From Octopus vulgaris (taxonomy: Eukaryota): DNA of 64,000 nucleotides. Positions 11,419 through 59,543 of this stretch are shown piece by piece. A model generated the notes under the pieces. That model searched no databases, was not told the DNA's origin, and worked only from the letters and a program-made list of their open reading frames with translations. The translations under genes and the position numbers were made by a program. Within the stretch, counting starts at the first letter, position 1; each line of letters begins with the position of its first letter. The stretch lies in contig OX597826.1 in NCBI GenBank assembly GCA_951406725.2, positions 63,798,001 to 63,862,000 of the forward strand, written 5' to 3'.

Positions 11419-11455
<37 letters not shown>

Positions 11456-11935
11456 GTATATGTATATATATGTATGTATATGTATATGTATGTATATATA
11501 TGTATATGTATGTATATATATATGTATGTATATGTATGTATATATATATGTATGTATATGTATGTATATATATATATGTATATATATATATGTATGTATA
11601 TATATATATGTATATATATATATGTATGTATATATATATATGTATATATATATATGTATATATATATATGTATATATATATATGTATATATATATATGTA
11701 TATGTATGTATATGTATGTATATGTATATATATGTATATGTATGTATATGTATATATATGTATATGTATGTATATGTATATATATGTATATGTATGTATA
11801 TGTATATATATGTATATGTATATATATGTATATATATGTATATGTATATATATGTATATATATGTATATGTATATATATGTATATGTGTATATATATGTA
11901 TGTGTATATATATATGTATATGTATGTATATATAT
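11412..11935. repeat. Compound (TA)n/(TATG)n/(TG)n microsatellite, about 520 bp
   Basis: Continuous purine-pyrimidine alternation of T with A/G. Confidence 0.98.
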
Positions 11936-13210
11936 GGAATTTGATGGCCAGACTGTGTTTACATAGGAGCTTCCTTTATGGATCAGTTTTCTTTTTCTGG
12001 CATTTTTCCATGGTCTAGCAAATGCCTGGTACCTGGTTTGCCAGGTTTAAACTGGATATATCTGGCCCAAATATTCTGCTTGTTTTGTGTTCAAACTAGC
12101 TAGATCTGGTTTCTCACCTACCCTACAATGTCATTTTGAAAATAAACAATCACGTCATCAAAATCTCAAAGCTACAAGATAATTCATGATTAATTCAAAA
12201 CAAGGTGAATAAATAAGCATAACATTTATCTCCTATAGAATGACACCAGACATAAAACCACCTCCCTCCTCTCTCAAATACACTCCTACTCAGTCGAAGG
12301 TTTTTTTTTTTCCTTTTCTCTTTTTTATTTTGTCTTGCACGTTACTTGGCAACCTCATTAATGACAGTGTCATGAAAAAATAATGGGATTAGTACACTCT
12401 TTAAAGTGGTTGGCATTAAGACATTGGAGCCTGACGCAGCTCTGCAGCACATTGAGCTCTGTCAAAGTGTCCAACCCGTGTCAACATTAAAAACGGGTGT
12501 TAAATGATGTCGATGCATTTGATTGAGTGATGTAAATGCTAAAGAGATAAATTGTGGTCAAAACCACGTAAATAACAAGATGAAAGTGTACATTAGGTTA
12601 AAAGCTTTCATTATCTTCTGAGAAACGTGATGTATTTAAAATTTTAAATCATACTCTTAGCAATGAAATCAGTCGTTATCTTAGACTTAATTATAGCTAT
12701 AAAAAAAAATTTTTTTAATTAAAAAAAAAGGGTGTGGAAACAACTCATTAAACAGAAAGTGGGGATTGTGATCTTTAGCTGTACAGTAACAACTCTGTCA
12801 GCAGTTCTCAAACTAATGAATATCAGAGCCTTCTGAAAATATTAGTAAAATTTTATGGCACCCTTCACCATGGTATTCGACAAGTTTTAAAAATAACTGA
12901 AAGTTTTCTTAATTTTATCAGAAATGTCAATTTGTCTGCCTCTTTTTCAGTCCTTCTAGCCCTCCCTCCAACCCCATGTAAAACATTCACCTACCACCAC
13001 AGCTATTCACCTTGAGCCAACAAGGAGGCTTCTGTGTGGTTGTATGGCTTTCTAGAAATAGCAGTCAAATCTCTCTCAAAATAATTCTATCTTCAAAATG
13101 GAAAGGCAATGGATAATTGCCATCATTATCATCATTTGACATCTCTGTTCCATGCTGGTATGGGTTGGACAGTTTGACAGCATTTGATGGACCCAAGAAC
13201 CACATTTGTA

Positions 13211-13447: not shown

Positions 13448-15619
13448 TATTTCAGTGTCTGTTTAGTATGGTTTACAGATTCTTAATGCCAACCATTTTG
13501 TAGTGTGTATTTGGTAATTTTTTCATGGCACCAGGGAAGTCGCCTTGCAGTTTACAAGATTACAAACCCTGAGTGGGGAGGGAGGAACTTTATGCTTGGA
13601 GTATAAGGGATAAAGGGGTAAAGTATGAGAGTAAGGGTCAGAGCTGAACAAGGATTCTTGCTGTAGAGCAGTGACAGGGCTTCTCACATTTTAAAAGACA
13701 CAGAGGCAGAAAGTGATAAAGTGTTAGGGTAAACCTTCAATTGAACAGGGTGGTCATGGTTGGAAAACCTTTAGTCACAAATCTATTCTTACAGACCTAC
13801 TTGGCAATATACAATAACTTAGAGGATAGCATAATTCATTCAGCAACCAGGGCTGTAAAAACTCCAGTGTTTTTTATTGTAACTAATGTAGCAATTCACT
13901 TGTCAGCAACAGTAGTTATCAGTGTTTTTACTATCTTGTAGTAATGAGTTCATATCCAGCTGCAGATGTGGATTGGAAATAGACAATGATGGGGAAATCC
14001 TTGCAACAAAAATGGCAGCAACCATAACAGGGGTTTCCATCCATCATGGTCTCCATGTAATATATATAAACATGCATTTAGCCAGTAAAATTATGATAAA
14101 TTTCTAACAGTATGAATTTTAAAAATTTACAATAGGGCATTACTGATTTCACTCTTTCTAGAATTAATAAGTTCACAATAGACTAGAATATGTTTATTTC
14201 AATGAATTCTCAAAGCTAAATCAATGTGGAAGACACGACAAACTGCTTTCAGTTTCTATCTGCCACATCCACCCTCAGCCTGGAGCTATAGTAGAAGACA
14301 TTGCCTAAGGTGCCACTGATTGTGACTGAACCCAAGACCGCATGGTTGGGAAGCAAGTTTCTCAACCACACAGCCACACCTGCATCCATAAAATATATTT
14401 CAAAAAACCAATGCAACTCGTTTCAGTCATGACAACTGATTTGTACATGCCAGATGGAAGTAGCTGTATGGTAAGGCTTGTATTGTGTAGCACAAGAATA
14501 TCCAGCCCCCTCAGAAATGTGGTTGATGAGGTATTCAGATATTGCTTTAGTGACTTGACTAAGCCATACCAGTATTGGAAATTAATAAACATTAAAATAC
14601 TATGAAATTTGCAGTTCTATCCAACCCATCTATGTCAGAAAGGGAATTCTCATATTGACTGAGGAGTCATATTTGTCTTAAGGAGCATCTTTTTTTTTCT
14701 TTTATTTTTCTTCAAAATATAAACAGGTGAATGCTGCTCAAATCAACTCCTTTGTGTTTGTATGTTTCTATTATTGAACAGCTTCTACCCTTTAGCATTT
14801 AATCCAGCCATGCCAGGCCCAAATATTCTACCTGTTTTATGTTCAAAATGTCCAGATCCAGTCTTTTACACCTACCCTTCAATGCCATTCTTAAAAATAA
14901 ATCACATCATCAAAATCTTGAATCTATTGAAAACAATGTGAATAAGTAAGCATTACACTTGACCAAGTAATCTGAATGCTAAAATAGTAAAACAGGTAAG
15001 CCTCCAGCTAGCAAGGTCTTACTACCTTGGTTTCCTTTCTCAGTCAGATTGATTTTACAAGACAGTGGCTTGAACTGGCATTTAATTGTTTGTTTAACCC
15101 CAGTCAACCTTGATTGAACATACCTATGATCAAAACCATTCCAGCTGTTATCAACCATCCTGTCTTTTTGTTGTACCTTGAACTACATTCATTATTCAGT
15201 GTGTTGTTCCTTGTTTAAAACATTGGAGTTTGATTTGAAAGAAATTTGGCTTTCGTTTCTAGCAGGGTGAATGACCATGTAGAGGTTCTCTCGCTTAGGT
15301 GACTTCTGTAAATATTTAAGATATTGATTGATTCCCTGTTAAGTTTCATATGTTTTCTCTCTCTCTCTCTCTCTCTCTCCCTCTCTCCATTCTTGATGTG
15401 CCTGTCATTGTGATGCTATGTTGAGTTCTTACTTAATTGGATCTGTTATCAATAAATACTATTTCAGTTTTTCATTGGAATCACTGCACACTTAAGGAAT
15501 TTAGAAAAAAATATTAAAGCATAACAATGTTTCCTCCTCTCTCTCTCACTCACTCCACTCACTCACTCACTCACACTTGTAAATATTAAGTTTAATAATT
15601 GTTTTATTTTAATTAGCAG

Positions 15620-15700
15620 GTCTAACAAGCACCACGCCTGCAACCGGTTTTTCTTTCTCTGGATTGAGTGGTACTCCTGCAACTACCAGTATTGGTTTTG
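15620..15700 (+). CDS. NUP58: NUP58 FG exon (81 nt, GLTSTTPATGFSFSGLSGTPATTSIGF)
   Basis: tagcag tandem acceptor, donor G|gtatgt, phase 1-1, S/T/G/F-rich composition. Confidence 0.88.
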
Positions 15701-16023: not shown

Positions 16024-16191
16024 GTGGTTGTATACTGTCAACTTAACGTGACAGTAAGGGAATTACACCACCGCTGTTTAGCCCTAGGAAGCATCGACGC
16101 TTCCTGTCGGCCTTGACGTCGATGCTTCCTAGGGCTAAACAGCGGTGGTGTATTCCCTTACTGTCACGTTAAGTTGACAGTATACAACCAC
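16024..16191. repeat. Near-perfect inverted repeat (76/75-bp arms, 17-nt spacer) inside an insertion flanked by a 15-bp direct repeat
   Basis: Arms 16024-16099 and 16117-16191 differ by one indel; atatatagatactgt occurs at 16011-16025 and 16250-16264. Confidence 0.95.
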
Positions 16192-22992: not shown

Positions 22993-23111
22993 TTATTTTC
23001 AGGGTCTCTTTGAAGATTTTGAAATCCAAATGAAAGCCTATAAAGGTGAAATCCAGAATTTGGAGAGTCACATCCTGTCCCTACATCAACCAAGTAGACT
23101 CTCCCCTGAAG
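22993..23111 (+). CDS. NUP58: NUP58 coiled-coil exon (119 nt)
   Basis: Poly-T ttctag acceptor, G|gttaat donor; (D)YFQGLFEDFEIQMKAYKGEIQNLESHILSLHQPSRLSPE. Confidence 0.92.
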
Positions 23112-24408
23112 GTTAATTTCTTTCATTACTACTTTATCACTTATTCTAATTTCTATTTCTGTCATAAAAACCACAAAACTAATTTTCACACAGTATCCCT
23201 ACTATTGTCCCTTATCACCTCCTCTTTCCCAAACCACTCCTATTTCCTTTTTCATTTCCCCTTCCCCAAACTGATATTCACTGTGTCCAACTCAATCCTT
23301 CTCTTTAATCATCTATCACATTCTTTTCACTATCTCTCTCTCTCTCTCTCTCGTATTTAACTTATACCTTGACTTCACATCTTCATCTCTTTCATACAGA
23401 TAAACCATATATTCACCTCTTCAGCAGGACACCTACTCCTGTCCTTCTATCATGCTTTCACATCCTTCAGTATTACACTCTACTCACTTTGGGGAGTGGG
23501 TCTTGTCTTGTGAGTACTTAGTGTCCTTACCAATGCTGATACTATGAAAAGCACCAAGTACACTCTGTATAGCAGTTAGCATTAGGAAGGGCATCAAGTG
23601 GTTAAAAACTGGAGTTTGACACTGCCCTTAAGGCTCCTTAGTTCCTGTCAAACCATCCAACCCATACCAGTGAGGAAAAGGAACATTAAAAGACAATACT
23701 ATTTAATCAATAAATGTACATTTCCTGCAGGAGTGGTTGTTTTATTGCTTGACTTTTCCTTACCAGATGTGCCCTTACAGTTCGTTTATTTTACATCTGC
23801 TCATCTGAAGCGGTTAGCTACATACCCTCTCCAATCAGGCCTACCTAACTCGTCTTTGCTTTCTCCCAACCCCTACACTAAACAGTTCACACTGTCTTTC
23901 TTCTCTAGAACTGCAACATGCTGAATTAAACAGTATTCTCTCTTTCTTATAGCAAAAAAACTCTATCATCTATTTACAGCTGGGTGAATGTTTCCAAGAG
24001 AGTGAGATCTTATGAGAAAGCTTTACTATCTGTGTAGCTGTACTTTTGAGTTATTATACTACTCCTAGAATAAGTTGACGTCTCCTAATTTTGAAATCGC
24101 ATGGTAGTTGTAAATGAATTGTCACCATCATACAGCAGTGTCTTTCACTCCCAATCTTGTGAAAGCATGCCTGGTCATGAGGAAATGTTACCTTACCATG
24201 AAATGGGTATGGGTTGATGACAGGAAGGACATCCATATGTAGGCTGTTCCATCAAATCCTGTCCAATCCATGCAAGCAGAAGAAGTAGACATTATTGATC
24301 TCATAGGCCTTTTAGTTTCCATATTAAAAAAATATGGAACTTTTTTTTTTTTTTACATTCTGTACATTGTTAATAACAATTTATAAATGTTGTCAAATTC
24401 TATTTCAG

Positions 24409-30549: not shown

Positions 30550-30717
30550 CTGGACCACCTAATATCGGTCTTGGTACAAACACTCTTGGTCAACACAGGT
30601 GTTTTGGTACCCCATTCAATAATCAGGGTAGTTTGTTTGGAAGTACAGGCACTGGCACTACATTTGGAACAAGTATGAACAATGCTAGTCTATTTGGAAA
30701 CAGTACTCCCAAAACAG
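30550..30717 (+). CDS. NUP58: NUP58 C-terminal FG exon (168 nt, phase 1-1)
   Basis: ttttcag acceptor, G|gtatgt donor; GPPNIGLGTNTLGQHRCFGTPFNNQGSLFG...SLFGNSTPKT. Confidence 0.92.
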
Positions 30718-34743: not shown

Positions 34744-35166
34744 CATCATCATCATCATCATCATCGTTTAACGTCCGTTCTCCATGCTAGCATGGGTTGG
34801 ACGGTTCGACCAGAGTCTGGGAAGCCAGGAGGCTGCACCAGGCTCCAGTCTGATCTGGCAGTGTTTCTACAGCTGGATGCCCTTCCTAATGCCAACCACT
34901 CCGTGAGTGTAGTGGGTGCTTTTTTACATGCCACCGGCACAGGTGCCAGGGGAGTCTGGCAGCTGCCACGATCGGTTGGTGCTTTTTACGTGCCACCGGC
35001 ACAGAAGCCAGTCAAGGCGGCACTGGCATCAGCCACGTTCGGATGGTGCTTTTTACGTGCCACCAGCACATAAGCCAGTCGAGGCGGCACTGGCATCGGC
35101 CACGTTCGGATGGTGCTTTTTACGTGTCACCGGCACAGAAGCCAGTCAAGGCGGCGCTGGCATCGG
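34744..35166 (-). mobile_element. Retroposon with (ATG)n tail (RTE-associated SINE or LINE 3' end) carrying four tandem units of about 62-67 bp
   Basis: (cat)n-cgtttaacgtccg..catgggttggacgg..ctacagctggatgcccttcctaa motif, also at about 811, 2101, 29964, 43340 and 45808, and in the opposite orientation at about 3395 and 21680. Confidence 0.8.
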
Positions 35167-41700: not shown

Positions 41701-43882
41701 CACAGATGTAAACAAACTCACACGCCTGTGTGTGTGTGCACATGGCTGCTATGGTTATGCTCAGAGCTCCAGGTAGCTTATCCTATTCCAGTCTGCTCCC
41801 AGTATAGTGATTAAGTAACTACTATACTTAGTTGTATTAAGTTACAGAAAACTGTCATTAGTGCTGTTACACACACACACACGTGAGGCTTCTTTCAGTT
41901 TCTGTCCTGTAAATCTACCCATAAGGTTTTGGTCAGCCTGAGGCTATAGTAGAAGATTATACCCAAGATGTGGTGCCCAAACTTCTCAAACCGCACGGCC
42001 AAGCCTGCACCTATCTCTATTATTTTGTATAAATAATGTATGCATAAAAGATTAACTTGACAGCTACAAGTATACTAACTCAAACAACCTCTGTTCTGTT
42101 TACTCAGTCTCTTTCCCCAACTTTTATCTCAACAGTGGAGGCAGATATAATATTCTATTATATCTTTTTTTTTTCTATTCTGAATTTAAATCCCAGCATG
42201 TGTGTGGCTGTTGATATTGCTCTTTCAGCCTGTCAAGTACCAGTAACATATTGGGATTGAGACGAGTAGAGAAACTAATAATGACATAACAGATTAGTAT
42301 AAGAAAAGGAAACTCCTGAGTTTTCACTGTTGCTTAAGTCATTCATCATTCATCATCATCATCATCGTTTAACGTCCGCTATTTTGTAAATATAAAAACA
42401 AAAAATGTCCCAGTGCATGCTTTAGGAAAGTGTCTTCTACCATAGCCTCTGGCCAACAAATGCCTTGTTAGTGAATTTGGCTGAAGCCTGGTGTGTGTGT
42501 TTTTGTTTGTCCACACACACCACTTGGTAACTGGTGTTGGTTTGTTCATATCCCATAATCTAGCAGTTTGGTAAAAGAGACAGATAAAATTAGACTTAAA
42601 TAAGTACTGTGGTTTTTTTGGGGTTGTTTTTTTTTTTATCTTCAACTAAATTCTTCAAGCCACAGTCCAATGACTGAAACAAGTAAAAGATATTCAGTAG
42701 TCAGGCACAGATTAGATCACTGTTGTATATCATGTGCTTCCCTATTCTTTTCAGTATTGTGTGGATCCCATTGTTGATGGTGTGATAATTCAGGTGTCAT
42801 TCACCTTAAACTTGCCCACTTGTCTTCACTTTTACTCCAACTAACCAAGCCATCACTCCCAACCCCCATCTGACAATCTATTTGGCATCAGACCAAGGTA
42901 GTGTCTTTATTCTGACTGAGAGTTTTCACAGCAAGCTAATCCTTTTCTTATTTTCAAAGATCTATTGGACCAAAAATAAAAATTGAATAGATTAAAAACC
43001 ATAGCCATCGCAAGCAAGTAAGTATGACATGGCAGCAAGCATCATGCTTTCACTACTTGTTTTTGGTAACCCTATGTAGTGCTAAGCAATCATAGACATT
43101 CTCAGCCCTCCAGCCCTTGTGCTAGTGGAATGTTGAGAGATGGCTGCACCAGCTCTCAGCTGGTACTCATTTTTTAAGTTGAGCAGACAGAAACAATTCA
43201 AAGTGAAACGCCTTGTTCAAGAACACAGCTTGCTGCCCAGCCCTGAAATCAAATGATCAATTATAACCACAAGCCGAACATGTTGTGACAGAACTTGCTC
43301 ACCTTGTGGTTAAGGCCAAAATAATAACCAGAATATCATCTTTTAACGTCCGCTTTCCATGCTAGCATGGGTTGGACGGTTCAACTGGGGTCTGGGAAGC
43401 CCGAAGGCTGCACCAGGCCAGTCGGATCTGGCAGTGTTTCTACAGCTGGATGCCCTTCCTAACGCCAACCACTCCATGAGTGTAGTGGGTGCTTTTTATG
43501 TGCCACCGACACAGGTGGGTGCCAGACGAGGCTGGCGAACGGCCATGCTCGGATGGTGCTTTTTACGTGATAATTACAAATTTCCTATATGTATAATTCT
43601 GTGCTACCATACATTGAGCAAATTTTTTCTTTTTGGGGTTTTCATGACAAGTCATTTTGGATTATGCATATATAATAATACACCAGGTGTGAATATTTGG
43701 ACTAACTTGAGGTTAAAGATAGTTTAATTGTGACAAATCAATGTCTGCTGAAAAATACATGCTATTGTTAAAGCTTACTCTTTTGTCCTTAGTGGTTCAT
43801 CATAGACCAGCTTTTGGTTCCTTTCTCACAGCTTTGTTGAAACTAAATTGATAATTCCTTCCATTATTATTATTCATTTCAG

Positions 43883-43957
43883 GATTTTCATGTTTTGGCC
43901 AAGGCTCCACTAGTGGCTTTTCCTTTGGTTCCAATACTGCTGCTGTGAAACCTCTAG
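43883..43957 (+). CDS. NUP58: NUP58 penultimate FG exon (75 nt, GFSCFGQGSTSGFSFGSNTAAVKPL)
   Basis: catttcag acceptor, G|gttagt donor, phase 1-1; resembles vertebrate ..TFGFGTTNKPSG. Confidence 0.9.
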
Positions 43958-45411
43958 GTTAGTGGGTGGTAAGGTTTCCTGGATCTTTCTCTATCTTTCC
44001 ATTTCTTTCTCCTTCCCTCTTCCTTTCACTCACTCACTCACTCACACACCGACACCCCCCCCCCCCCCCACCTCTCTGTCTCTCCCTCCTCCTCTCTTTC
44101 TCTCTGCCTTCCACTCGATTTTCTTTATTTTTAAACCACACCCGTCGGACAATCAATCAATAAGCTGTTTGATAGATGGACCCTTCGTTGGAGCAATAAA
44201 ATTTGATATCCAACAACATACCAGTATTCTTCAATGACAGCAAATTCACACATGTAAAATAAAAAAAAAAAATAATTTTATATACTGCTTATAAAAGAAA
44301 CCAAAAAAAAAAAAAACAACCAAGCTTTCAAGTCTGCTGTTTTCCAATTTTGGCCTTAGGCTGTTTTTTTTTTTTTTTCTTTCTTTTCCTTCAATCCTCA
44401 TTGAATCATTAGTGCTGTGTAATGTAAACATTTCTTTACAAACAAGAACCAAATATATCTGCTTCAACAAAAAAGAAACGTGTACGCTTAACTTCATCTG
44501 CTGATACTTAAGAGATAGGGGAAGCAAATAAAAATATAATCATGCTCTCGACTTCTTCCTATAACCTGTCAACAAGAGAAAGGCAAAAATATTCTAGGCA
44601 TTAGACGGTTACTGGTTTATATTTACGAAACCATATTGATGAATATTTTTTTTTTTTCTTCTTCCTTTTAATAAAAAATATTTGAAGAATCAAACATGTC
44701 CTATTTTCTCTGCATCCATTAATATCTAAAAGAAGTAATTTGTCTTTCCTTTGTTGTGATGACGCTTAGAAATGTATTATTTCTGGTTGTTTGTCCCTTT
44801 AGTTTTTGCATTAGCTCCTGTCGTTGTTGTATATGTTGTCTGTGTTTGTACGTACATGTGTGCACCCATTCTATATTGCACATTTACAACTATATTTCTC
44901 TGTGTCCACATTGCTGTAATTTTGAAGAATTTTTGATATGATCGTATGCAATTTGTGTGTGAATGTGTGTGTGTGTATTGAATGAAGGTACATTTCATTT
45001 AATAAAAAGTTTCCTTTTCTTGACACAAATGTTGAACCAATTTGAAAATTTTATACACACACACACATTAGTTTAACTAATCAGATATGACAATGGTACT
45101 GTTGCAATAATATTTAGGTTTTGAAATAGATTTCAAAAGTACTTTTGAAATTAATTTTTGCAGAACAGTTTAAGATTTTTGGTTACTAGCCTGGGATACT
45201 TTCAGTAAAGTTACCAACATGATATTTAGCTACTGCTGGTGATTTTTCCAAATCATTTCTTATATTATTAATTATATAAATATAGGTAATTAAATGTTAT
45301 GAAAAACAAATTTGCTGTTAAATTCCCCAGTATTTATGAGGAGAAAATCTAATGATATGACGCTGTAAACTAGTAGATATTGTTTCATCATATACTTGTA
45401 CATAGATTCCT

Positions 45412-45546
45412 ATCATTTTTTAAAGTTATCCCTCGCATTTTCTATAGAAATTAGAGCCAGCACTGAGAGTATACAAAACATTCGTAACTCTCAATGCTGA
45501 CTCTAGTTCCTATAGAAAATCTGTTGAGATAACTTTAAAAACTGAT
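45412..45546. repeat. Imperfect inverted repeat (about 60-bp arms, short loop)
   Basis: ttttaaagttatc..attttctatagaaattagagccagcactgagagt pairs with actctcaatgctgactctagttcctatagaaaat..gataactttaaaa. Confidence 0.9.
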
Positions 45547-46293
45547 TCAATCACACTGCTAACATGATATTGACTTATAAACCCTTCTATATACTTGATA
45601 GAATACTATGGTTACATAACTAAATACGGTGTCCCTACCAGTGATTAATATGTGCCTACATATATTGATTGTGACAGTTGACACCTCTCACTTTCATATC
45701 CTGACATTTTAAAAATAATACCTGTATTCACTGTAGGAAGTATAATTATCATTTAAGGAGAAAATCTGGAAGAAATGTGGCACAAACTCAATTTTTGGTG
45801 ATATGACATCATCATCATCATTTAACGTCCGTTCTCCATGCTGGCATGGGTTGGACGGTTCGACCGGGGATCTGGGAAGCCAGAAGGCTGCACCAGGCTC
45901 CAGTCTGATCTGGCAGTGTTTCTACAGCTGGATGCCCTTAATTATATTAACAATAACAAATATTTCTTAGATTAGCACATGGTTATAAATTTTCAGGAGT
46001 CAGTTGAATTGATCTCATTGTATAACTGTTCTCTATTCTCATCAGACATAAGGGTAAAGAAAATCAAAACCAGCTCCTGGAGTTGACAAGAAAGAGATCT
46101 AACTAAATCCTTATCATTCAATGTCCATTTTCGGTGCTGGCATAGGATGAACAGTTCAGCAGGAACTGGTGAGCCAGAGGAGTGCACCAAGACCCTCTGT
46201 CTGCTTTGGTATGGTTTCTTTGACTGGGTATCCTTCTTAACATCAACCACTTAACTGAGTGTATTGGGTGCTTTTTATGTGGCACCAGCCCAG

Positions 46294-47985
46294 TGAGATT
46301 GTATAACATTTAAGAGAATATAGCTACAAATTGATGTAAAAAAATATTTAAATAAATTTTTATATATTTGTGTAATAGTGAGGGCAACACCAGTTATTTC
46401 TCTGTAATAATATATATTAATTATATCAAAGTTGACAGCTTACTTTGAGTTCAACTCCAGGTTAAGTTGTCCACTATACACACATACACATTCTGTGTAT
46501 GTGATGAAATTAAAATATAACAGATACACTTGCAGCATACTAGATAACAAGGAACCTTCTACATGGTCACTAGAAATAGCAGCCAAATCTCTTTTACGTA
46601 TCATATCTTAAATAAGGAAAGAACACGTTAGACAATGTAATTCTGGATACTCCTAAAAAGAAGTGATGGCCACACACTGAAGGCCTTTGAACCTGAGGCT
46701 AAAAGAATGATAATGAACTTTTTTTTTTCTTGCATTGGCCAAAAATACCCTCATTTTCAGTGTGAACATCTTGTTTACAAATAATATTTAATACTACTTA
46801 TATAGTGCAATGTTATTTAGTGATTTCTCCTACATATTTTTATTAACTTTAAGGTTTTTCTTAATATAATGTGTAGAACAAAGCATCACGTGAAGTGACT
46901 TCTGTTCACCCTAGTTGTTAATGTGTTTAAGTTTCACTTCAAATGCCTGATTCAACCAAATCACCCTTGCAGTCCATTCAATTACATAATTGAGTTATCT
47001 TGTTTGTCATTGGATTGTGCATCATGCTGGGGCACCATTTGAAGGGTTTTGTTGAATAAATTGACCGCAGTACATATTTCCCTAAGTCTGGTACTTATTC
47101 TCTCTGTCCCTTTTGTTGAACTGCTAAGTGATGGGGGCATAAACAAACCAACTCTGGTTGTCAAATGGTGAGAGAGACAAACACAATGACACATATTCTC
47201 AGATATGGCGGCGAGCTGGCAGAAATGTTAGCACCCCGGGCAAAATGCGTAGCCATATTTCATCGTCTGCCGTTACGTTCTGGGTTCAAATTAAGCCGAG
47301 GTCGACTTTGCCTTTCATCCTTTCGGGGTCAATAAATTAAGTGCCGGTTACGCACTGGGGTCGATGTAATCGACTTAATCCGTTTGTCCTTGTTTGTCCC
47401 CTCTGTGTTTAGCCCCTTGTGGGTAGTAAAGAAATATATTCTCAGATATAAGTAAAAAGTGGCATACATGGTGTTACATTTATTCCATGGTTCACAGGCT
47501 TCCACCACTCTTTCCATCTACCAAATTCACTAACAAGGCATTGTTCAATTCAGTACCTATTGTAGCAGACACTTGCCCAAGGTGCTGCACAATGGGACTG
47601 AACCCAAAACCATATGGTTGCAAAGTGAGCTTCTTACCAGCTAAACATTAAAATATTTCCTATCCTATACACTAACAGAGAAATTGAGAGAATGTAGTTG
47701 TCCATCAAAATTAACAATATATCAGTTGCTTTTCATAATTCCATCAGGAAGTGAGGAAGATGTTCTGATAAAACGCCTCTGTTTATCATATTTTTTTTAA
47801 TGCCATATAAGGCCAATTTGCTTTTACCTGGCACAGAAACCTATGTAACAGGTATGTATGAGTAGAAATGAGATTGTGTAACATTCAAGAGAATATAGCT
47901 ACAAACTGATGTAAAAAATATTTAAATAAATTCTGATACATTTTTGTGTAATAGTGAAGGCAACACCAGTTATTTCTCTTTAATA
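46294..47985 (+). repeat. Local direct duplication of about 116 bp (46294-46409 and 47869-47985)
   Basis: tgagattgt.taacatt.aagagaatatagctacaaa.tgatgtaaaaaa..gtgtaatagtga.ggcaacaccagttatttctct is present twice. Confidence 0.9.
47207..47435 (+). mobile_element. Young SINE (Meta/Nin-like core) with 14-bp TSD, nested in an older SINE
   Basis: TSD atattctcagatat at 47193-47206 and 47436-47449; head ggcggcgagctggcagaa..gggttcaaatt; core gtcgactttgcctttcatcctttcggggtc. Other copies at about 105, 33447, 38790 and 48280. Confidence 0.9.
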
Positions 47986-47986
47986 T

Positions 47987-48256
47987 GTTTGTTCCTTCTC
48001 AAGCCATGCCTAGCTCATAAGGGCTGGTTTCCTTGGCGTATAGGTTCCCCGCCTGGACGGGATGCCAGTCCATCGCAGGTGAGCTACAAGATGCAGGAGG
48101 AAAGAGTGAGCAGAAGTTCGCCATTACCTTCTGCCGGAGCCATGTGGAGCTTAGGTGTTTCGCTCATAAATACACACATCGCCCAGTCAGAGATTCGAAC
48201 CCGTGATCCCTCGACCGCTAGTCTGTTGCTCTAACTACTAGGCCATGTGCCTCCAC
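47987..48256 (-). mobile_element. tRNA-derived SINE with 11-bp TSD
   Basis: TSD ctctttaatat at 47976-47986 and 48257-48267; minus-strand head gtggaggcacatggcctagtagttagagc..gggttcgaatctc with A and B boxes. Confidence 0.88.
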
Positions 48257-50820
48257 CTCTTTAATATAGGATACAGTAAAAAGGCGGCAAACTGGCAGAA
48301 TCATTAGCACAATGGGCAGAATATTTAGCATTTTATCTGTCTATATGTTCTGAGTTCAAATTCCACCAAGGTCTACTTTGCCTTTTATCCTTCTGAGGTC
48401 GATAAAACAAGTACCAGTTGAATACTGGAGGTCAATGTAATTGACTTATCCCTTACCCAAAATTGCTGGCCTTGTGCCAAAATTTGAAACATGATGCAAT
48501 AATTGAGAAGTGTTAAATATTAATATAAGGAGTTGTATCAATTGAACCGAAATTTTGAGGGGAGTTAACTGTGAATTTTAAAGATAAGAATAATGTGGTA
48601 GTGTGAATTATTTTGTTGTATCTTGAATGGAAACTAGTGAATAGTTTTAAGAAATTTTATTCACTATAGGCATAGCTGGTTTTGAGTTCAGTCCCTTAGT
48701 GCCGCACCTTGGACGAGTGTCTTCTATAATAACCCTAGACTTACCTATGCCTGATGGGTGAATTTGGTAGATGGAAACTGGTTGCCCATCACTTATATGT
48801 GCTTGTGTCCTCCATCACTATTTGGTAATTAATGTTAGTTTGTTTACATTCTTTTAGTAGAGTAGCTTAACAAAAGGGACCAATAGAATATGTCAAGATA
48901 AGTACTGGCATCAGTGTGTTCAACGGAAACCCTTCAAGGCAGTGCCCCGGCATGACTACCATCCAATGACTGAGACAAGTAAAAGATAAAGATTATACTA
49001 TCTAACCATCCCAGTAAGCCAGATTATCTAAAAGCTACTTATGAACGATTCAGTTTGGAATTTAGGTGTAATTTACACTATCTGTTGTTGTTAAGTGTGA
49101 GATCTGTCTCACATATTGTAATATATAACTGCTTCAACATGCTGAACAAAATTACTGAAATCTTCTCCAAGAGCCATCACAGTTTTATTCATTAAGGTTA
49201 GTAACGGTGGTAGGTATGTATACATCATTATCATCATCATCATTACCACAGCTACTTTTCCCTGCTGGTATGGGTTGCACAGTCTTTATTGAGGCAGATT
49301 TTCTATGGCCACATGCCCTTGCTGTCTCCAATCCTCGCCTGTTTCCAAATAAGATAATGTTTCACCATGACTCACACTCGTTTACAATTATATGATGTGA
49401 AAGCAGAGAGACAGTAATACACATATTTATGTATGTAATATATATTTATAAACGGACTGCCATACAGGTTTTGTCAACCAAAATACTCACATGGGCATTC
49501 GTTGGCCTAAAACTATTGTAAAAGCCACTGCCCAAGTTGAACCCGAAACCATGTGGTTGGGAAGCAGACTTCTTATCACACAACCATGCTTTCACCTATC
49601 ATTAATTTAATTTGGTTTTTAAAGGATCGGGCTGCTCCCACTTTTTAATTTTTGTCAAGCAATTGAAAAAAGAGTCAGTTTAAAATACTGTCAGTGGTGA
49701 AAAAGTCCAGTGTGTAAATCTGGTCCATCACAGCATTGAATAAATTTCTCTGGGATAAAATACAAACCAACATTAGTATTGTTCTTAGAACAGCTTTGTG
49801 CTTACAACCCACCCTTCAGCTAAAGTAGAATTGACTTTATAGCTTACTTAGATATCCCTGAAAAATTGTTACGGATATCAACTTGTAAAATCGGAGCTTG
49901 TAGCATGGTTCTTTCCCGAAATTGCCTTTCTTTCTGTTGGTTTGAAATGTTCATAAATGCTATCATATGTTTGTAAGTCATAAAAGTAAATGGAATTTAT
50001 CATTATATTTCTTTTTTCTATGAAAAGAAAAAGAAAACTTTAAACTAAAAGTTCTTGCATTACTAAAAATATTAGGAGCCTAGTACCCCATTCTTCCCAT
50101 TTTTTTTTTTTTTTCTTTTCAATTTCAAATTAGAAAGTTATACTATTAGAATTAATCTAAGCTGAAATATTTGCGACATTTGTGCTTACTAAATTCACTC
50201 ATGATATAACTTCAGTATTACTAACATTAGTAACTAGGATTTTGAGTAGTTTTACTGAAAGCTACCTTTCAATGGGCTTAAATAATATTTTTCTGCAAAT
50301 GATTTTTAAAAAATTTTTATTTTACAAATTTTGGATTTTCTTTTAGCTTTTAAATTAATACCATATGTATGTTTAAATTTTAATCCATTTTCATTCAATA
50401 TTTTTTCGAATATGTAACTTTCATCCCATAACTGAAATTTATTTAATTTTTGGTTTTTTTTTTTTAATTGCCAGTTGTCTCCCTTGTCATTTTCATTTAT
50501 TTATTTTTAACATTTTCAAGACATTTTTGTACCATTTTTATTTATTTATTTATTTGTTTGTTTTTTTTTCTGTTAATTTAGTTTTTGTCTGAAATACCAA
50601 CTCATAATGTTTACTCATATACATCGTTAAATAAATTACAAATAATAATATTTTTAAAATCCTCAAAGACAGACAAACTAATAAAGCTTAATCCCCACCA
50701 CCCGCTTCGCCTCTCCCTTTCTGCCCATCACAACATATTAACCCTTTGAAATATTGTTTAATAGATATTTTAGCTATTCATAGCTTGTTTGTATTTTTTT
50801 TTTTTAAATCTGTTTTGCAG

Positions 50821-50922
50821 GTTGAAAATATTAAATTCCTGTGAAATTTTGGTCATGAGAGAACCGTCATTGTTCTTTAATGCAGTGCGTGTTCTCTTGT
50901 GGCCTTTTGACTTCTAGTGCAA
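50821..50922 (+). other. Predicted cryptic stop-containing (poison or alternative) exon
   Basis: T12..tctgttttgcag acceptor and CAA|gtgagt donor; after the phase-1 donor at 43957 it reads GGT TGA. Confidence 0.6.
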
Positions 50923-53900
50923 GTGAGTTTCTTATTCTAGTTTGGGTTGATTATCTTATTAAGTAAACTTAATTTAATTAAGGATTTTTTTCTTTTCCCC
51001 TTCCCTACTCCTTCCTTTCTGTGTGCGCCTGATTAAATAAAATATTTATATATGTGTGTATATATATTTATATCTATAGAGTATGGAAATTTTGCTTCAA
51101 TCTTCATCTTAATTCTTTTCCCAGTTAGAAATTTTTAAGTTGATTAAAATTTGAAATTTTAGTTTTTGTAAACTGAAATGGGGAGAGTGATGAAATGAAT
51201 AAAAACATTTTAAAAAATACAGTAAGAAGTTGAATTAAATTCAGTTAAAAAAAAAAAGGTATGAACATATCTTCTACTTGTTGCAGTCATTGGACTGTGG
51301 CCATGCTGTGGCACTGTCTTGAAGGGTTTAGTCAAACAAATTGACGCCAGTACTTCTTTTTTAAGTCTGGTACTTATTCTATCACTCTCTTTTGTCAAAC
51401 CACTAAGTCATGAGGATGTAAACAAACCAACATCGGTTATCAGGTTGGGGGGGAGGGACAAACACAACACAAAAACACACACACACATATATATACATGA
51501 CAAGCTTCCTCTCAGTTTCCGCCTGCCAAATTTACTCAAAAGGCATTGGTCAGCTCAGTAGAAGATACTTGCACAATGGGACTAAACCTATAACCAACCA
51601 CATGGTTGTAAAACGAGCTTCTTAACTCCATAACGAAGATATTCTAAATGTGAGAAGCAAAAAATTATTTCAGATTCCTTTCCTTTTTTCCTCTACTTAA
51701 TTTCGGTTTATGAAAACAAAATCCCAGTTGTAACCTCTTGAAATTTCAGTCTGGTGGAAGGAAGATGATTTCCATCTCTTATATATATATACACATACAT
51801 ACATATATAAATATATAATATGTATAATACATTCGATAGTTTTCTAAGGTTAGAATTAATTGTTCTTATAATCTTGCTCTTCTCTCTACAGTCATAGTGC
51901 TTCTTTGTTACAGCATGTGTGACATACCCGTTTTCAACAGACCCTATCTTTCTTCTAAACTCCAAAAAAGATTTCTTTCTAGACTCAACCATTTGATTTA
52001 CTTACTTCTGAATACACCTTGAGCTATCTTTCTTTTTGGTACTCTACTCATCAACTCCCTTACCTGTGTGACCAATCTCTTTTCTTCTGGTTTGAAACTT
52101 CGGCTCTGTATTCATTGGAATGTATCTGATGTTTCTGGCAATAAACAAGTTTAGAAACAGTAATATAACATATTACTACTTAACAAATTTTCCTATCCAG
52201 TTGGCTGGGTAACATTATTTTAAACATATCTTATAAATGAAAGGTTGTGTTTGCAAATAATTCCGTGGCCTGCTAGCAATTCTCTTTTCTATTTTGAGTG
52301 TGCTTAAGATTGCCAAACAATAATTATACAAATTTAAGATGTCTTTTTTTTTTTTAAAAAAGAAAAAGGACATTTTGTTTGTTTTCTAAAAGACTTAAAC
52401 AATAATAAATTATAATTATAGTATTTAATATTATTTTCTCTGTGATTACCAGTCTATTCTGCACTGGCTGTCATGCATGTTGCTTTCATTGGTTTTCATA
52501 AAATTTGCATGTCCTGGAATGCTGGATAAAATGCAATAATTGAAAAAAGAAAAAAAATGCTTGATCTATGACTAGTTTGTAGAGATTGTTTAATTTCAAT
52601 ATTATTGTCATATCATATATAACAAAGCTAAAACTTGCTAATGTTTTGACTTTCTAGTTATTTCTTATATATTTTATTTATTCAATGAATTGGGATGCTT
52701 TGTCTTTTCTTTGGTATTATCTTCAAACTTTATTAGTAACAGTTATTCAAGTGGTTCTTGAAGTACAAGGTAGCATCTGAGAGGAAGTGGGGGGACTAAA
52801 ACAGCATAGTAATTAAGTAGCTGTAGCCATGTTATATGTATATATATTTATATTCATTTGTTTTAAAGCTCAGACTTAACTCAATCAAAACGAATAGCTA
52901 AAATTCTGTGTATTCAGGACTTTCTCCTCTTGTACATCAAAAACTCCAACACCATTCTGATCAAATTGAAAATCCTACTGTTGAAACTATTAACACTGAA
53001 AATGTTATTGTCGGTAAGGTTACGGACTTTTTTTCCAGTCTACATGTAATATCAGTATGAAATTATGACTAATTGGTTGTCATAAAGAGAGAAGTGCAAG
53101 GTATAACAACAATAAAGGAGGTGGGTGTGGACCTCAACTTAACTATTTGTAAAATATGTGCTTAGTCTGTTACCATGGTTTCTTAACTGATTACCACAGC
53201 AGATTGCTAGGAGTATCATAAGTATTATCAAACACATACAATATTTTGATTGCTAAAGTAGAAGTATCCTTGGATTTTTTTTTTTTTTTCCAAAAGCAAT
53301 TCAAAACCTTAATTACTATAATGTTACCAGCAAAATAAGTTTAAGTGTTGTCTTATATTATGGTGGGTGGTCATGGAGATAATTAAAGCTTGTAAAGAGT
53401 ACAGTCAATTATATAAGATCCAGAAAGTTAAAAGGCAAAGTTGACCTTAGGGATTTGAACTGAGAACTGTAAATAAATACCAGAAATTTTGTCCAGCCCT
53501 CTAATGATTCTTTCAATTCATGGTCCTTGTAGTAGTCAAACACTAAGCTGTTTGATTACTGTTGAACGGTTTTCAATTAGCTGAACAACTCAAAAGGAAG
53601 TCAAAACTCTTTCCTTGGAAAGTCAACATTTTGTAACATGAATCCATGTTTTCATGACCAAGACAATTTTCTATATCCCAGTTTGCATAGCTATAAGTAG
53701 GTATGATGGGTAGGAATGAGATAGTTTAAAAACGTCTCAAACAATCAGGAAAGGAATCGGTTAAATTTTGACATTAAACGTATCCCCATTAGTATAATTT
53801 TTCTGCCACAATTTAGTACTATAAAGCACTAATATGCATTTGACACATCTGCTGAAGAGTGTGTTGCCAACTGCCTTGATTTCATCTTTGGCGATTACCA

Positions 53901-54277
53901 GCATCCAAAGATCTGACCTCATTATTTCTCTGTCTGTGACTGCCCATCTTCAATAGCATACAGCACATTTTTTATTTAAATTCTTCAAGAAAGGAAATAA
54001 ATTTTATTCCTACTTTACAAGGCTCATATGTTATGATTTTTATCAAAAGCATTTGTTACCTGGAATAAATATATTTAACCAAGAATTGAAAATGAGTTGC
54101 GCAAACTAAACTGGCCAGGGGTTTACCTTTCATTGTACATTGATTTTTCTGCATGAGACCCAGGTCAGCCCTGAGCAAATTTATGATAAGAAGCATTCTA
54201 ACCATGACCAGTTTATCTTTGTATGACATAGTCTTACATACACAAGTGTGATTTGATTGATATTTCAAGCCAAATAA

Positions 54278-54507
54278 CCATGGTTCTCAATTATTTTTGC
54301 CTATGGACCCTCTTTGATTCCTATTTCACTCAGCTGAACCCTCAAAGCCATTTGATGTTTAAAAAAAAAATCCTACAATACCATTGTAATTAAATAGGAA
54401 TTGTATAAAAAAATTTTAATATTTTGTGTACTGTGGAGATATAACCAATTTATTGCACATAAATTTCTACACAAAAATCTTATATGGACCTCAGTTGAGA
54501 ACCACTG
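54278..54507. mobile_element. Decayed hAT (Charlie-like) MITE
   Basis: Ends ccatggttctcaa / ttgagaaccactg; repeated ggaccc subterminal motifs; no clear TSD. Confidence 0.6.
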
Positions 54508-55033
54508 ATGCAGAGGGTCCCTGGAATTACTGTATTTGAAGGGAAAAATGTTATTAGTACATTAAAGCTTATGAGAGTCCTGACTTTGCATATAGCACCC
54601 TAGGACATCCTTTTGAGACAAGTTTTTGGGGAAAAAAAGTCCATCTTATATGCCATCAAATATGGTAGATATAGAGATTTAATATAACCTATAATACTGT
54701 CTTGAATCACACATTCCATTTCTGTGACTCCCACCTTTATCTGAACAAGGTATAAGGGAGCTTAATTGTTTCCTACTTTTCAAAGCTAGAATATCTAAAA
54801 TATAGAAACAGGATAGTACTAATGATTAAATGAAATTCTCAACCCTTCAGTGAATGTTAGTTCATTCAGAATTAAATAGGATAATTAGTGACTAGAAATA
54901 GTTTTAAAAGATCTTTCAGTTTGCACAAATTCAAGACAAAAACTAAATTTTTTTTTCTCTTTCACACTCACACATAAACAATTTATTGAAACTCCAAAGA
55001 ATTTAATAATGATAATATTTATATAATTTTACC

Positions 55034-55415
55034 TTAATCTTTTAGCATTCAGATCTGTCCAGTGTAATGCTTACTTATTTATTCACATTGTTATGAAAGA
55101 ATCATGCATTATCTCGAAGCTATGAGATTTCAGTGATACGATTGTTTATTTATAGAATTACATTGTAGGATAAGTGTGATAAGCTGGATCTGGACAGTTT
55201 AACTTTTTAGCATTCAAACCAGCCATATCCAGCCAAAATATTCTGTTTTATGTACAAACTGGCCAGATCTGGCCTCTGCCATCTACAGTATAATTTCACT
55301 CTAAAATAAACAATCATCAACGTCTCAAAGCTAGAAGATAATGCATGATGAATTGAAAAACAATGTGAGTAAATAAGCATTACATTTGACAGAATAATCT
55401 GAATGCTAAAGAGTT
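55034..55415. mobile_element. Head-to-head pair of piggyBac-like MITE copies
   Basis: A minus-orientation partial copy at 55034-55200 abuts a plus copy at about 55201-55415, both of the 56936 family. Confidence 0.8.
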
Positions 55416-55491
55416 ACATGAAAAGTTGTGGTTTATGCATTTGTTGAAGTTCTGTTTCCTTATTGACTAATTACAATATTTTTTTTTCCAG

Positions 55492-55608
55492 GCTGTACAG
55501 AAAAAAAAAATCGATTATTAAGTAAAATACATTGCTCGCATGTTCTTCAATTAAAATTTTAGCTTCTCTTTAAAAAAAGCATGTATTACAATGTTTAGAA
55601 TCTGATGT
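55492..55608 (+). other. Predicted alternative acceptor or cassette upstream of the terminal exon
   Basis: Branch-like gactaat near 55465, T9-ccag acceptor; in-frame TAG at 55560-55562; possible gtgagt donor at 55609. Confidence 0.45.
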
Positions 55609-55726
55609 GTGAGTGTGTGAACATTGTAGAAGTGAAATTAATCTTTCTGTATACGAATAATATTCTGATTAGAATCGATTCTGTCGTCACAATCCTTGAA
55701 TTTCTTTTGTCCCCTGTTTTTGTTAG

Positions 55727-55965
55727 GAACAATCCTCAATACACCAGGGAATATATTCGGTACATCAGGAAGCACAACAACACAGCCAGGACTGCTCGGT
55801 ACACAACCCAACGCCGCAACTGGAGCAGCATTCTCATTTAATAATCTGTCGACAACGCAACCCAACTTTGCTACCGGAGATGGACAACAGTTAGCTGGAG
55901 GCCAAAACAGAGCTTTTCAATTACAAAAACCACCTCCACCAGCCAGTAAGCGGGGCAAACGGTAA
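55727..55965 (+). CDS. NUP58: NUP58 terminal coding exon ending AFQLQKPPPPASKRGKR*
   Basis: Pyrimidine tract plus tgttag acceptor, phase 1; the C-terminus matches vertebrate LQLKKPPAGNKRGKR; TAA ends at 55965. Confidence 0.96.
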
Positions 55966-56269
55966 TGTTTGACAATGTAAAGCTGAGCCAGATGACAAGC
56001 ACATTTTGTACATACGTAAAAATGTTTCAAAAAGATCTAAATTAAAATGAATGTTTGACTATTTCTACTATCATCCACATTAATAATACACTGAATTCTA
56101 ACTTTGTTTTTAAGATAATTATATGTAAAAGTAAAAACAAAAAATACAATACTTTTCTGTGTTATTTTTATAATTAAAAGCAAAATTACTCAGACATTGT
56201 ATTTTCTTCCTCACAGAATCCATTTGACTTCATCTGTAATTTTTGCCATTTGTCATTAAACATCTCAAC

Positions 56270-56275
56270 AATAAA
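56270..56275 (+). terminator. Probable poly(A) signal of NUP58
   Basis: AATAAA about 300 nt after the stop, followed about 20-50 nt later by a GT/T-rich tract (ctgtgttgctcaattttctattgtttagtttt). Confidence 0.6.
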
Positions 56276-56935
56276 AGCAACTTTTAACAACATATCTGTG
56301 TTGCTCAATTTTCTATTGTTTAGTTTTGATATATTCATATTAGTAAAACTTCATTTTACTATAAATTCTTTGACCAACATACTGTAATACTTAATTCACT
56401 TGGCAACCCTGTACATCCTTATCACTGCACTGTACCACACCAATGTGCTATGATGTATAGGTAGATGTACTGCCAAAAATAGTTCATTTTTAATAAATGT
56501 AACACAAACTAAAAATTCTAAATAAAGTACCTAATTTTTTTGTAAGCCAAATGGTTTAAACATTCACATTGCAAGTGAAATTGGACAGACAGAAACTGTA
56601 TCAAAGCCCATTGGCTAGATTATCCCTGTACTTTAAAGTTACAACCTTGTCACTGTGACATACTGATTCCACCACAGAATTATATTAAGTGTACATGTGC
56701 CTGTGGACTGTTTTGCCACTTACAAACTAAATCAATGAGCAATTAATTCAGTTGATCAAACAACTGAATCCTCATTGATGGAATCAATGAAAATCTATTT
56801 TATTTAGAGGCTAAACTATGTAAAGAACTTTTTCTGGTTCACCATACTTCAACTTCGTACAAAAAAATACACCAAAATATTTATATATGTTCTTAAGTTT
56901 GTCATGTGTAAAAGTTTGGAAACCACTGCCTTAAA

Positions 56936-57156
56936 CCCTTTAGCATTCAAACCGGCCATATCCGGCCAAAAGTATTCTGCCTGTTTTATGTTCAAACTGG
57001 CCAGATCTGGTCTCTCACACCAGCCCTACAATATCGTTTTAAAAATTAACAGCTACCACATCAAAATCTCAAAGCTCCAAGATAATGCCTGATTAGTTCA
57101 AGGCAATGTGGATAAAAAAGGATTAATTTTGGCAGAATAATGCGAACACTAAAGGG
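56936..57156 (+). mobile_element. piggyBac-like MITE (main family)
   Basis: ccctttagcattc ... gaacactaaaggg-ttaa terminal inverted ends at a TTAA-like site; other copies at about 12045, 14790, 16269, 22765 and 40250. Confidence 0.8.
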
Positions 57157-59543
57157 TTAAACTATGTAATATCCAAGATTGAAATGATTTCAACTTAAGT
57201 AATTAGTAACAAAAATTCAATACAAAGCATAAAGGATGCATTGATGACTGATTTAGATGTTTTCTGCTGACATCATTCTTAAATTTCATTGTCAGTGCCA
57301 TTTTAGTCTCTTTTTTTTTATGAATCACAAGAGTTCAATAGATTTGTTGAGCACCTCAACCTACATTTCAACAAAGGCTGACTCTAAAAAATAGATAGTG
57401 CAAACATATGAAGGCTATGCCAACAGCTGATTTACTAATTGCATCAACCAAACAATGAAGAAGTTTTATAGTAAACTTCTATTCAAAGAGATGAGATATA
57501 GATGGAGTCCAAAGGCAGCCAATGGAGCTATAAGGAGGTTCTCATGAAAGACATAAGGTTTTCTGATGTTAAGAGCAACAACAGTGAACTGTGAATCCAC
57601 CATGTTCAAGAATATAAGACCTCTAGTGTGAGACACAGGAAAGTAAATCTCTTGTACATCTAGTTCTATATAAACAATGCTGGTGATCACTGAAAATGGA
57701 GAGAGACTCAGTGGGATGAAGGACATTGTATCCATTACCATTGAAGTGTCCAAAATGCAGGCAGGGTTAAAGAAGTTTTTTGTGGGGAATGGCACACTTG
57801 CAGGAGTCTAAAGATCAGATCAAATCTCATGCAGAGAAAATAAGAGTGTGATGCTGAGGTTGGCAAAGTCGTCAATACTGACTCCTGGGAGTCATCTATG
57901 TGGCTATCTGAGGAGCAATAAATATTAAATATTCTAACTATAAACATAGTATGACTGAATTTTTATTGTCCTTTATCAATTTCATCAAGTATTTTGATTA
58001 AATTTTTTGAAATATTTCTTAAGTGGTGATGCCACAAAAGAATGAGGGAATTATTGTTTTTAAATTGAGAAATTTTTCATTACTTATACTTTTAAATTTT
58101 AGTTTACATATTTGCATGATTGCATTCAATAAGTTATCAATAATTCCATGAAGAGGTCAATGGTAATAAGAAGCTAGCTGACCCCTGTTGTAGAGTTTGA
58201 TGAGGAAAGGAGCTAGCTGTAGGGAAGAGGAACATCATTAGCACAAATCAACTTGTCTGGGTTGAAGTGATCAGGAAAATGTTCACACTTGGTGACTACG
58301 CACATGGAAATGTGAGACATTGGTCTGAGAGGAATGATGAATATGACAGTGAGACTGAGACTGATTGATCTGAAAGGTGTAGCAGATATGCAATGTGGAC
58401 TTGGATGTTTATTAAGCTAACAAATAGACTTTTAAAAAAGTTTGTTCTTTTACTAAACTTCACCCCAAATTTTGGATTATTTTGAAAATTACTAGAAAAC
58501 AGCAGTAAAATAATGAATACATGAAAATTAAACTGGGGCTCTGTCGGTAACAACAAAGGTTCCAGTTGATTCAATCAACAGAAAAACCTTCTCATGAAAT
58601 TAATATGTAATAGGCTGAGCACTCCACAGACACATGTACCCTTAAAGTAGTTCTCATGGAAATTCAGCATGACACAGAATGGCCCTCTGAATTACAGCTA
58701 CAACTCATTTTTGCCAACTAAGTGGACTAGAGCAAGATAAAATAAAGTACCTTGTCCAAGGACACAATACACCACCAGAAATTAAGCTCACAACCTTACT
58801 GTCATGACCCGAATATCCCTAGCCACTAAACCACAGGTCTCCACATACATGGAAATAAACAGTAGAGATTTAAGGATCAACAGTTTGAGTAAGTAGAGGT
58901 CTAAGAATCAATAGGGCATAGTTTCCCATTAATGTTGTACTATGTTCTAATCAAAGACACTTAATCATTGTGGTGTTCTTGTTTTTTGTATTATTTGAAT
59001 TCTTTTCAGAAAGATGTGACCAATGTGTAACAATAATTTTAAAATATTCCTCAAAATATTTTTAAAATATAAAAATCCTGAGAAAAATAAAGCACTGAAA
59101 ATGTTCATTGTGAACAAAAACTGTACCAAAAGCAGACAAGTTGAACATAGTAGAAATAACATTTGTAATAAACAAACAAAATAGCAAACTAACCACTGAG
59201 ATTACTTATTAAAGGATTTCCATGTAAACTCTTTTCTGTTGGTAGTAAACTCAACAAATATTGTAACTGATGGGGACAGGACATAGCTGTAGTGCTTTGA
59301 TAAGAGCTGCTGCTATATATCCAACCTTGTTCAGGTTTAGTCAGACATAGCTTAAAACATCTACCATGAAGTGGTAGAGTTGTTGGTTAACCCCAGGCTG
59401 GGTAGATTTATGCAAGCACAGCTTTGTGGTTAAGAAATTTACTTCACCACTATATGGTTTTCGTTCAGTTGCACTAAACAGCACCTTCAGCAAAGGTCTA
59501 CTAAAGCTTTATGAGTTAAATTTGATAGACAGACACTCTATGG

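Follow-up and report, generated by a model that had tools for sequence, protein, structure and literature searches.

A short alternative end of NUP58 in Octopus and other lophotrochozoans, and a candidate hairpin exon in the last intron of the gene

Nup45 differs from Nup58 at its C-terminus, and the coiled-coil region of Nup58 has an established role in assembly with Nup54 and Nup62. Nup45 is an established splice variant of Nup58, and both proteins occur in pores; the rat forms measure 52 and 59 kDa, respectively (PMC2173148, PMC4004597, PMC1257468). In the portions of the searched literature that were available, Nup45 is described from mammals and without an assigned function, and the accessible text of a study reporting that Drosophila Nup58 binds Nxf1 contains nothing on isoforms (PMC8133776). 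The present analysis concerns a stretch of 64,000 nucleotides of Octopus vulgaris DNA (assembly GCA_951406725.2, contig OX597826.1, positions 63,798,001 to 63,862,000 of the forward strand; hereafter, the window), which contains the larger part of a NUP58 gene (+ strand), and the alternative ends that its message may take.

The octopus and other mollusc short forms resemble mammalian Nup45 in being a shorter splice variant of the same gene (PF15967). They differ from it in having, in molluscs and brachiopods, an invariant [KR]PLG stop without an added tail. As to whether rat p45 breaks at the same junction, the comparison of masses is ambiguous, since the gap of about 7 kDa between the rat proteins stands against 5.4 kDa for the vertebrate last exon and 8.3 kDa for the last two exons. 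A second likeness is to composite exons with intronic polyadenylation and to alternative last exons, where one exon may be internal or terminal and a stop lies right behind the donor. The available part of table S3 in PMC9699675 counts 263 octopus events in which a retained last intron contains a poly(A) site and 223 in which there are two last exons, and the kind of event described below is ordinary in this sense. Unlike generic composite exons, NUP58 keeps the position of the stop across phyla, and two predicted routes lead to an identical protein with different 3' untranslated regions (UTRs). The literature searched describes no invertebrate PLG-stop isoform and no exon at positions 50821–50922 of the window, although subscription papers and one supplement may bear on this.

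Alternative C-terminal forms of NUP58

Exon matching to protein records showed that the window exons are those of the O. vulgaris record CAI9732025.1 (P0012), letter for letter over the segments found. Over 245 residues, the product is 44% identical to bird NUP58, and its coiled-coil region PF15967 between FG regions, together with a C-terminal basic motif as in human NUP58, identifies it as NUP58. An upstream coding exon (30550–30717) has a phase-1 donor that joins either the penultimate coding exon or, in a skip isoform, directly position 55727. The penultimate exon (43883–43957; hereafter, the PLG exon) is 75 nt long, encodes FSCFG...AVKPL-G, and has the phase-1 donor TAG|GTTAGT. It is followed by the last intron of 11.8 kb and by the last coding exon (55727–55965), which ends FQLQKPPPPASKRGKR*.

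The original prediction proposed four outcomes from the single phase-1 donor at 43957, and in-silico splicing of the window sequence reproduced all of them. Without splicing (exit a), the donor letters GTTAG (43958–43962) are read as GGT TAG and the protein ends KPLG*; splicing to 50821 (exit b) gives the identical KPLG* end. Splicing to 55492 (exit c) adds a 22-residue tail with a TAG stop at 55560–55562, and splicing to 55727 (exit d) gives the full end with a TAA stop at 55963–55965. The identity of the first two ends is mildly unusual and not extreme, given that 10 of the 591 AGs in the intron would yield G*.

Protein records show which of these ends have been annotated. A short protein with the KPLG stop is listed beside long forms in three Octopus species (P0012, P0014, and P0001), bearing out the proposal of a p45-like form without the KPP..KRGKR tail. 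At the level of annotation, it results, like Nup45, from alternative RNA processing that yields a shorter protein from the same gene. Homologue searches and cluster listings provided 103 mollusc- and brachiopod-type proteins, which were sorted by pattern into 40 long forms with the PLG motif, 21 long forms without it, 35 short forms ending at the PLG exon, and seven that end elsewhere or are fragments. Among the 35 short forms, 29 have the exact [KR]PLG stop, three end in RPLV (oysters), two in KPLR (Argonauta), and one, a cephalopod-like record with a core 82% identical to octopus, has a 14-residue tail (KPLD plus 13 residues). All but one of them (34/35) end within one codon of the junction. 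The exact G-stop is found in 14 named species of eight genera (Octopus, Magallana, Saccostrea, Mizuhopecten, Ylistrum, Mytilus, Patella, and Lingula) and in 12 Logan/ENA assembly proteins; in one oyster-like Logan cluster, four of six members are short, one of these on 15 contigs. Four scorpion records end KPLGK. In a vertebrate set without mammals (cluster members together with the best 120 of 685 hits), 18 of 215 proteins are short forms ending after the corresponding exon; one of these stops at the junction, and the others carry variable tails. Octopus, oyster, scallop, mussel, limpet, and Lingula share the residue at which a short form ends, which suggests that the split is old and probably selected. 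Judged from these sequence comparisons, this p58/p45-like alternative end arose long before the cephalopods, and the isoforms are already present, though unremarked, in public annotations.

Skipping of the whole PLG exon was missed by the original prediction. Isoforms without it are recorded in all three Octopus species (P0008, P0013, and P0006) and in 11 named species overall, including oysters, scallops, and limpets, and vertebrates likewise skip the corresponding exon (e.g., P0174 and P0114). The database records therefore comprise three C-terminal forms, namely full, PLG-exon-skipped, and [KR]PLG-ended. What these records conserve is a three-way choice between including the PLG exon, skipping it, and ending at it.

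The short form lacks 78 residues and keeps 27 of the 28 FG dipeptides, so the suggestion that the switch tunes the length of the FG domain is not supported. Its main loss is the conserved basic motif FQLQKPP..KRGKR. The KP.G motif can be aligned from octopus to birds, as can the terminal KPP..K.GKR motif, which is also found at the end of human NUP58. Because the short protein retains the entire coiled-coil anchor and nearly all FG dipeptides, it is predicted to assemble with Nup54 and Nup62. A PDB search with the last exon returned no hits; the tail is of low complexity. According to the accessible text of PMC13367847, the basic C-terminal tail of human NUP58 enhances capsid binding; no cellular partner of this tail was found in the literature searched.

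Several further features of the gene were observed. A donor-like GTG|GTAAGG (43968–43974) lies 11 nt behind the main donor, and its use would retain the TAG and yield KPLG* with any acceptor. At 23110–23117, another phase-1 donor (AAG|GTTAAT) would give an immediate stop on read-through, and no isoform ending there is among those listed. In the O. vulgaris record CAI9732023.1, the normal stop is spliced out (CG|GTAATG to 56345; 55961–56345 in the window) and KRGKR is extended by 41 residues; this type of extension occurs in one of 11 Octopus isoforms, and its donor scores low. Three other long forms (P0032, P0034, and P0035, from a scorpion, a centipede, and one further source) have four to five additional residues behind KRGKR. 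A tandem acceptor TAG CAG at 15615–15620 agrees with the single alanine by which isoforms X1 and X2 of O. sinensis differ.

The last intron: read-through region, candidate hairpin exon, and repeats

The PLG-exon donor is followed by a repeat-free, T-rich stretch (43958–45796) that is a candidate 3' UTR of exit (a), with AATAAA at 44195, 44258, 44527, 44670, and 45001. Compared with a 400-kb genome sample, the repeat-free gap at 43570–45796 is the longest in the gene body and that at 49616–51264, which holds exit (b), is the fourth longest. Repeats cover 30% of the gene body and none of these two U-rich islands, as had been claimed for the surroundings of both exits.

Exit (b) corresponds to a candidate 102-nt exon (50821–50922) with the acceptor TTGCAG|G, a TGA at 50823–50825, and the donor CAA|GTGAGT. 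By an ad hoc score, its acceptor ranks first among the 591 AGs of the intron, above the true acceptor 55727, and its donor is within the top seven of 642. Three AG..GT pairs in 49 kb pass the cuts for this exon, one of them a real exon, and both of its splice sites are as strong as those of real exons under this score and these post hoc cuts. The exon is single copy in a genome search, a kind of search that can miss common words. Read-through of the TGA would add just two codons before a TAA. The stop precedes the 50922 donor by 97 nt, more than the 50–55 nt that the stop-to-junction rule, which comes from vertebrates, sets for decay. Downstream, ATTAAATAAA (51032–51041), followed by a TG/TA-rich tract, is a candidate poly(A) signal if exon (b) is terminal.

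Within the candidate exon is a 54-nt hairpin (50851–50904) with 22 pairs, five of them G-U, and no mismatched pair. It folds at −29.5 kcal/mol in the sense direction and −13.3 kcal/mol in antisense, and reaches a z of about −9 against shuffles; no 60-nt window elsewhere in the intron is as stable. A repeat-free background of 265 kb has nine hairpins at or below −27 kcal/mol, none of which combines a GC fraction of 0.5 or less with such a strand bias. Further, the oyster RPLV* end and the cephalopod KPLD tail are impossible by read-through of a GT donor, which implies that other molluscs have spliced exits in this intron, not necessarily at sites homologous to (b). The claim of a strong acceptor at 50821 is upheld: 50821–50922 is likely a real exon, and we infer its inclusion from the splice-site ranks and the single-copy hairpin.

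Poison cassette exons, which are associated with nonsense-mediated decay (NMD), occur in splicing and export factors, e.g., NXF1, whose retained intron carries an RNA element. Candidate exon (b) resembles them in bearing a stop more than 55 nt before a junction and a structured element, in a gene of the export machinery; it differs in that its hairpin matches no Rfam family. An Rfam scan of 43800–56600 returned seven weak hits (E up to 5), none at the gathering score and none on the hairpin. Two known element types were rejected by eye against their consensus sequences. The hairpin lacks the 3' GA of the quartet of a selenocysteine insertion sequence (SECIS) element, and it has no 5-bp stem under CAGUGC as in an iron-responsive element. 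A sequencing-run search with 50640–51060 listed no RNA run that contains it, and the 10 of 12 presumed-RNA rows containing 0.40–0.71 of the words were not used as evidence. Hairpin motifs were unmatched in supplements of PMC9699675 (files 2 and 3) and PMC11701709 (one file), an uninformative result; no table of microRNA sequences was noticed there. A scan of metagenomes, aimed at host DNA flanking bivalve NUP58, yielded two loci from 218 pattern matches, neither of them NUP58. Elsewhere in the window, a repeat-free AG..GT pair at 7382–7603 scores like a real exon and has stops in all three frames; it is a possible second cryptic or poison exon.

Exit (c) (55492–55562) fared differently. Described as having a strong acceptor, it ranks ninth of 591 AGs and fails a cut of 75% pyrimidines that 15 AGs pass. 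The tail it would add is absent from all 329 proteins compared, 11 Octopus isoforms among them. Acceptor 55492 is not confirmed as more than chance, and exit (c) is unsupported.

The RNA stems reported near each alternative all fold far beyond shuffles (z of −13.3, −9.2, and −13.7), and two of the three are part of the background. The first (45412–45546) is 1.45 kb from exit (a), and both it and the stem at 55034–55415, within a repeat at 55031–55423, are common dispersed repeats that are not specific to the switch. A first look at the genome gave 266 and 6692 candidates for the two stems, respectively. Both elements are dispersed, self-complementary, short, and noncoding, and their two strands match the same places, as in a miniature inverted-repeat transposable element (MITE). 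Just downstream of the 3' UTR, 56918–57169 is a partial second copy, apparently of the 55031–55423 family. Other repeats in the window include a near-perfect palindrome at 16081–16140, which folds at about −40 kcal/mol on either strand and is probably an inverted-repeat element of small size, and, in NUP58 introns, a 500-nt TA/TG microsatellite (11429–11936) and a 67-nt three-copy tandem repeat (34956–35166).

A proposed Nup45-like subunit and competing explanations

We consider it moderately probable that the octopus short form arises by read-through of the last intron, and likely also through the hairpin exon at 50821, and serves as a Nup45-like subunit without the basic tail, the ratio of forms setting the number of basic tails. 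Under this model, splicing from the GT-TAG donor over the whole 11.8 kb would compete with intronic poly(A) cleavage and with the stronger-scoring acceptor 50821. A donor left unspliced would lead to an immediate stop, as would one spliced to 50821. An exon (b) message ending near 51040–51060 would be stable, with the hairpin in its 3' UTR, and one spliced onward from 50922 to 55727 would be a predicted decay substrate because of the distance between stop and junction. The tailless protein is predicted to join the pore, so that splice choice would set the count of KPP..KRGKR tails lining the channel and not FG length.

Several observations weigh against this interpretation. Isoforms that read through the last intron are commonplace in annotations, and an immediate stop is no rarity: G* also results at one of the other six phase-1 donors in NUP58. 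The species compared are related and the database entries are not independent; no short form is listed for Liolophura (one record), Mytilus coruscus (two), or Patella caerulea (three). Neither route directly explains the KPLR* end of Argonauta, and no protein-level evidence of a short form was seen for any invertebrate. The cuts behind the splice-pair and hairpin-background counts were set from the candidate itself, and exon (b) may never be used.

The short output might instead be unproductive and autoregulatory, lowering NUP58 dose, with exon (b) as a poison cassette, the retained intron held or decayed, and the short protein cleared. The immediate stop on both routes and its position upstream of the 50922 donor agree with this, as does the bivalve RPLG-COOH end, which fits the RxxG C-degron of CRL2-APPBP2 in the accessible text of PMC10614623 and PMC7458402. 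However, the KPLG of octopus, limpet, and brachiopod lacks the Arg that APPBP2 needs and so does not conform to RxxG, -LG is not among the KLHDC2/3/10 ends listed in the accessible text, and a terminal Gly is what a phase-1 G|GT donor yields by default. Assembly contigs also commonly contain short forms, which would be unexpected of a decayed message, and rat Nup45 is a stable and abundant pore protein in the available part of PMC2173148. Unproductive output is an unlikely account. Distinctly unlikely is a combination of slow last-intron splicing and annotation habit, by which the records would represent retained-intron pre-mRNA, the stop would be neutral or merely protective, and exon (b) would be a pseudo-exon. 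Such an origin would suit the read-through isoforms with variable tails at other junctions and in vertebrates, and two of the seven phase-1 donors of this gene do give an immediate stop; it sits poorly with an end that is nearly invariant over cephalopods, bivalves, a gastropod, and a brachiopod, with the spliced oyster exits that stop immediately (RPLV*), and with a single-copy, strand-biased hairpin inside the best-scoring cryptic exon.

Two further hypotheses center on RNA structure. The hairpin at 50851–50904 may be an intronic pre-microRNA of the octopus lineage, its overlap with the splice sites being incidental or reflecting competition between splicing and Drosha. Its 23-nt arms, 8-nt loop, G-U-rich stem, and single copy have the dimensions of such a precursor, and coleoids have many new microRNAs (PMC9699675, accessible text). 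Nevertheless, its lower stem is weak, the Rfam scan tied it to no known family (families confined to one lineage may be missing there), and the conserved short protein would be left unexplained, which makes this reading highly unlikely. The original prediction had favored a structure- or ADAR-sensitive four-way switch using three stems and acceptor 55492. The stems do exist, and within the pre-mRNA they would form double strands; the available part of PMC9699675 places octopus editing mostly in introns and 3' UTRs. Nothing found here supports a role of ADAR, whereas two of the stems are genome-wide repeats, 55492 is ordinary and unrepresented among proteins, and isoforms outside coleoids speak against a cephalopod-specific device. 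We regard such a switch as barely credible.

A broader version of the preferred Nup45-like model is unlikely. It would describe an ancient dosage module in the last intron, in which a double-stranded RNA reader or export capacity would set the fate of the hairpin exon as terminal exon or poison cassette, the pore would tune the number of its own basic tails by feedback, and the PLG-stop form would be an invertebrate Nup45 more than 500 million years old. The single-copy hairpin exon provides a concrete cis-element to test. Taken together, the comparison among species suggests that the regulated element of NUP58 is the basic C-terminal tail rather than the number of FG dipeptides.

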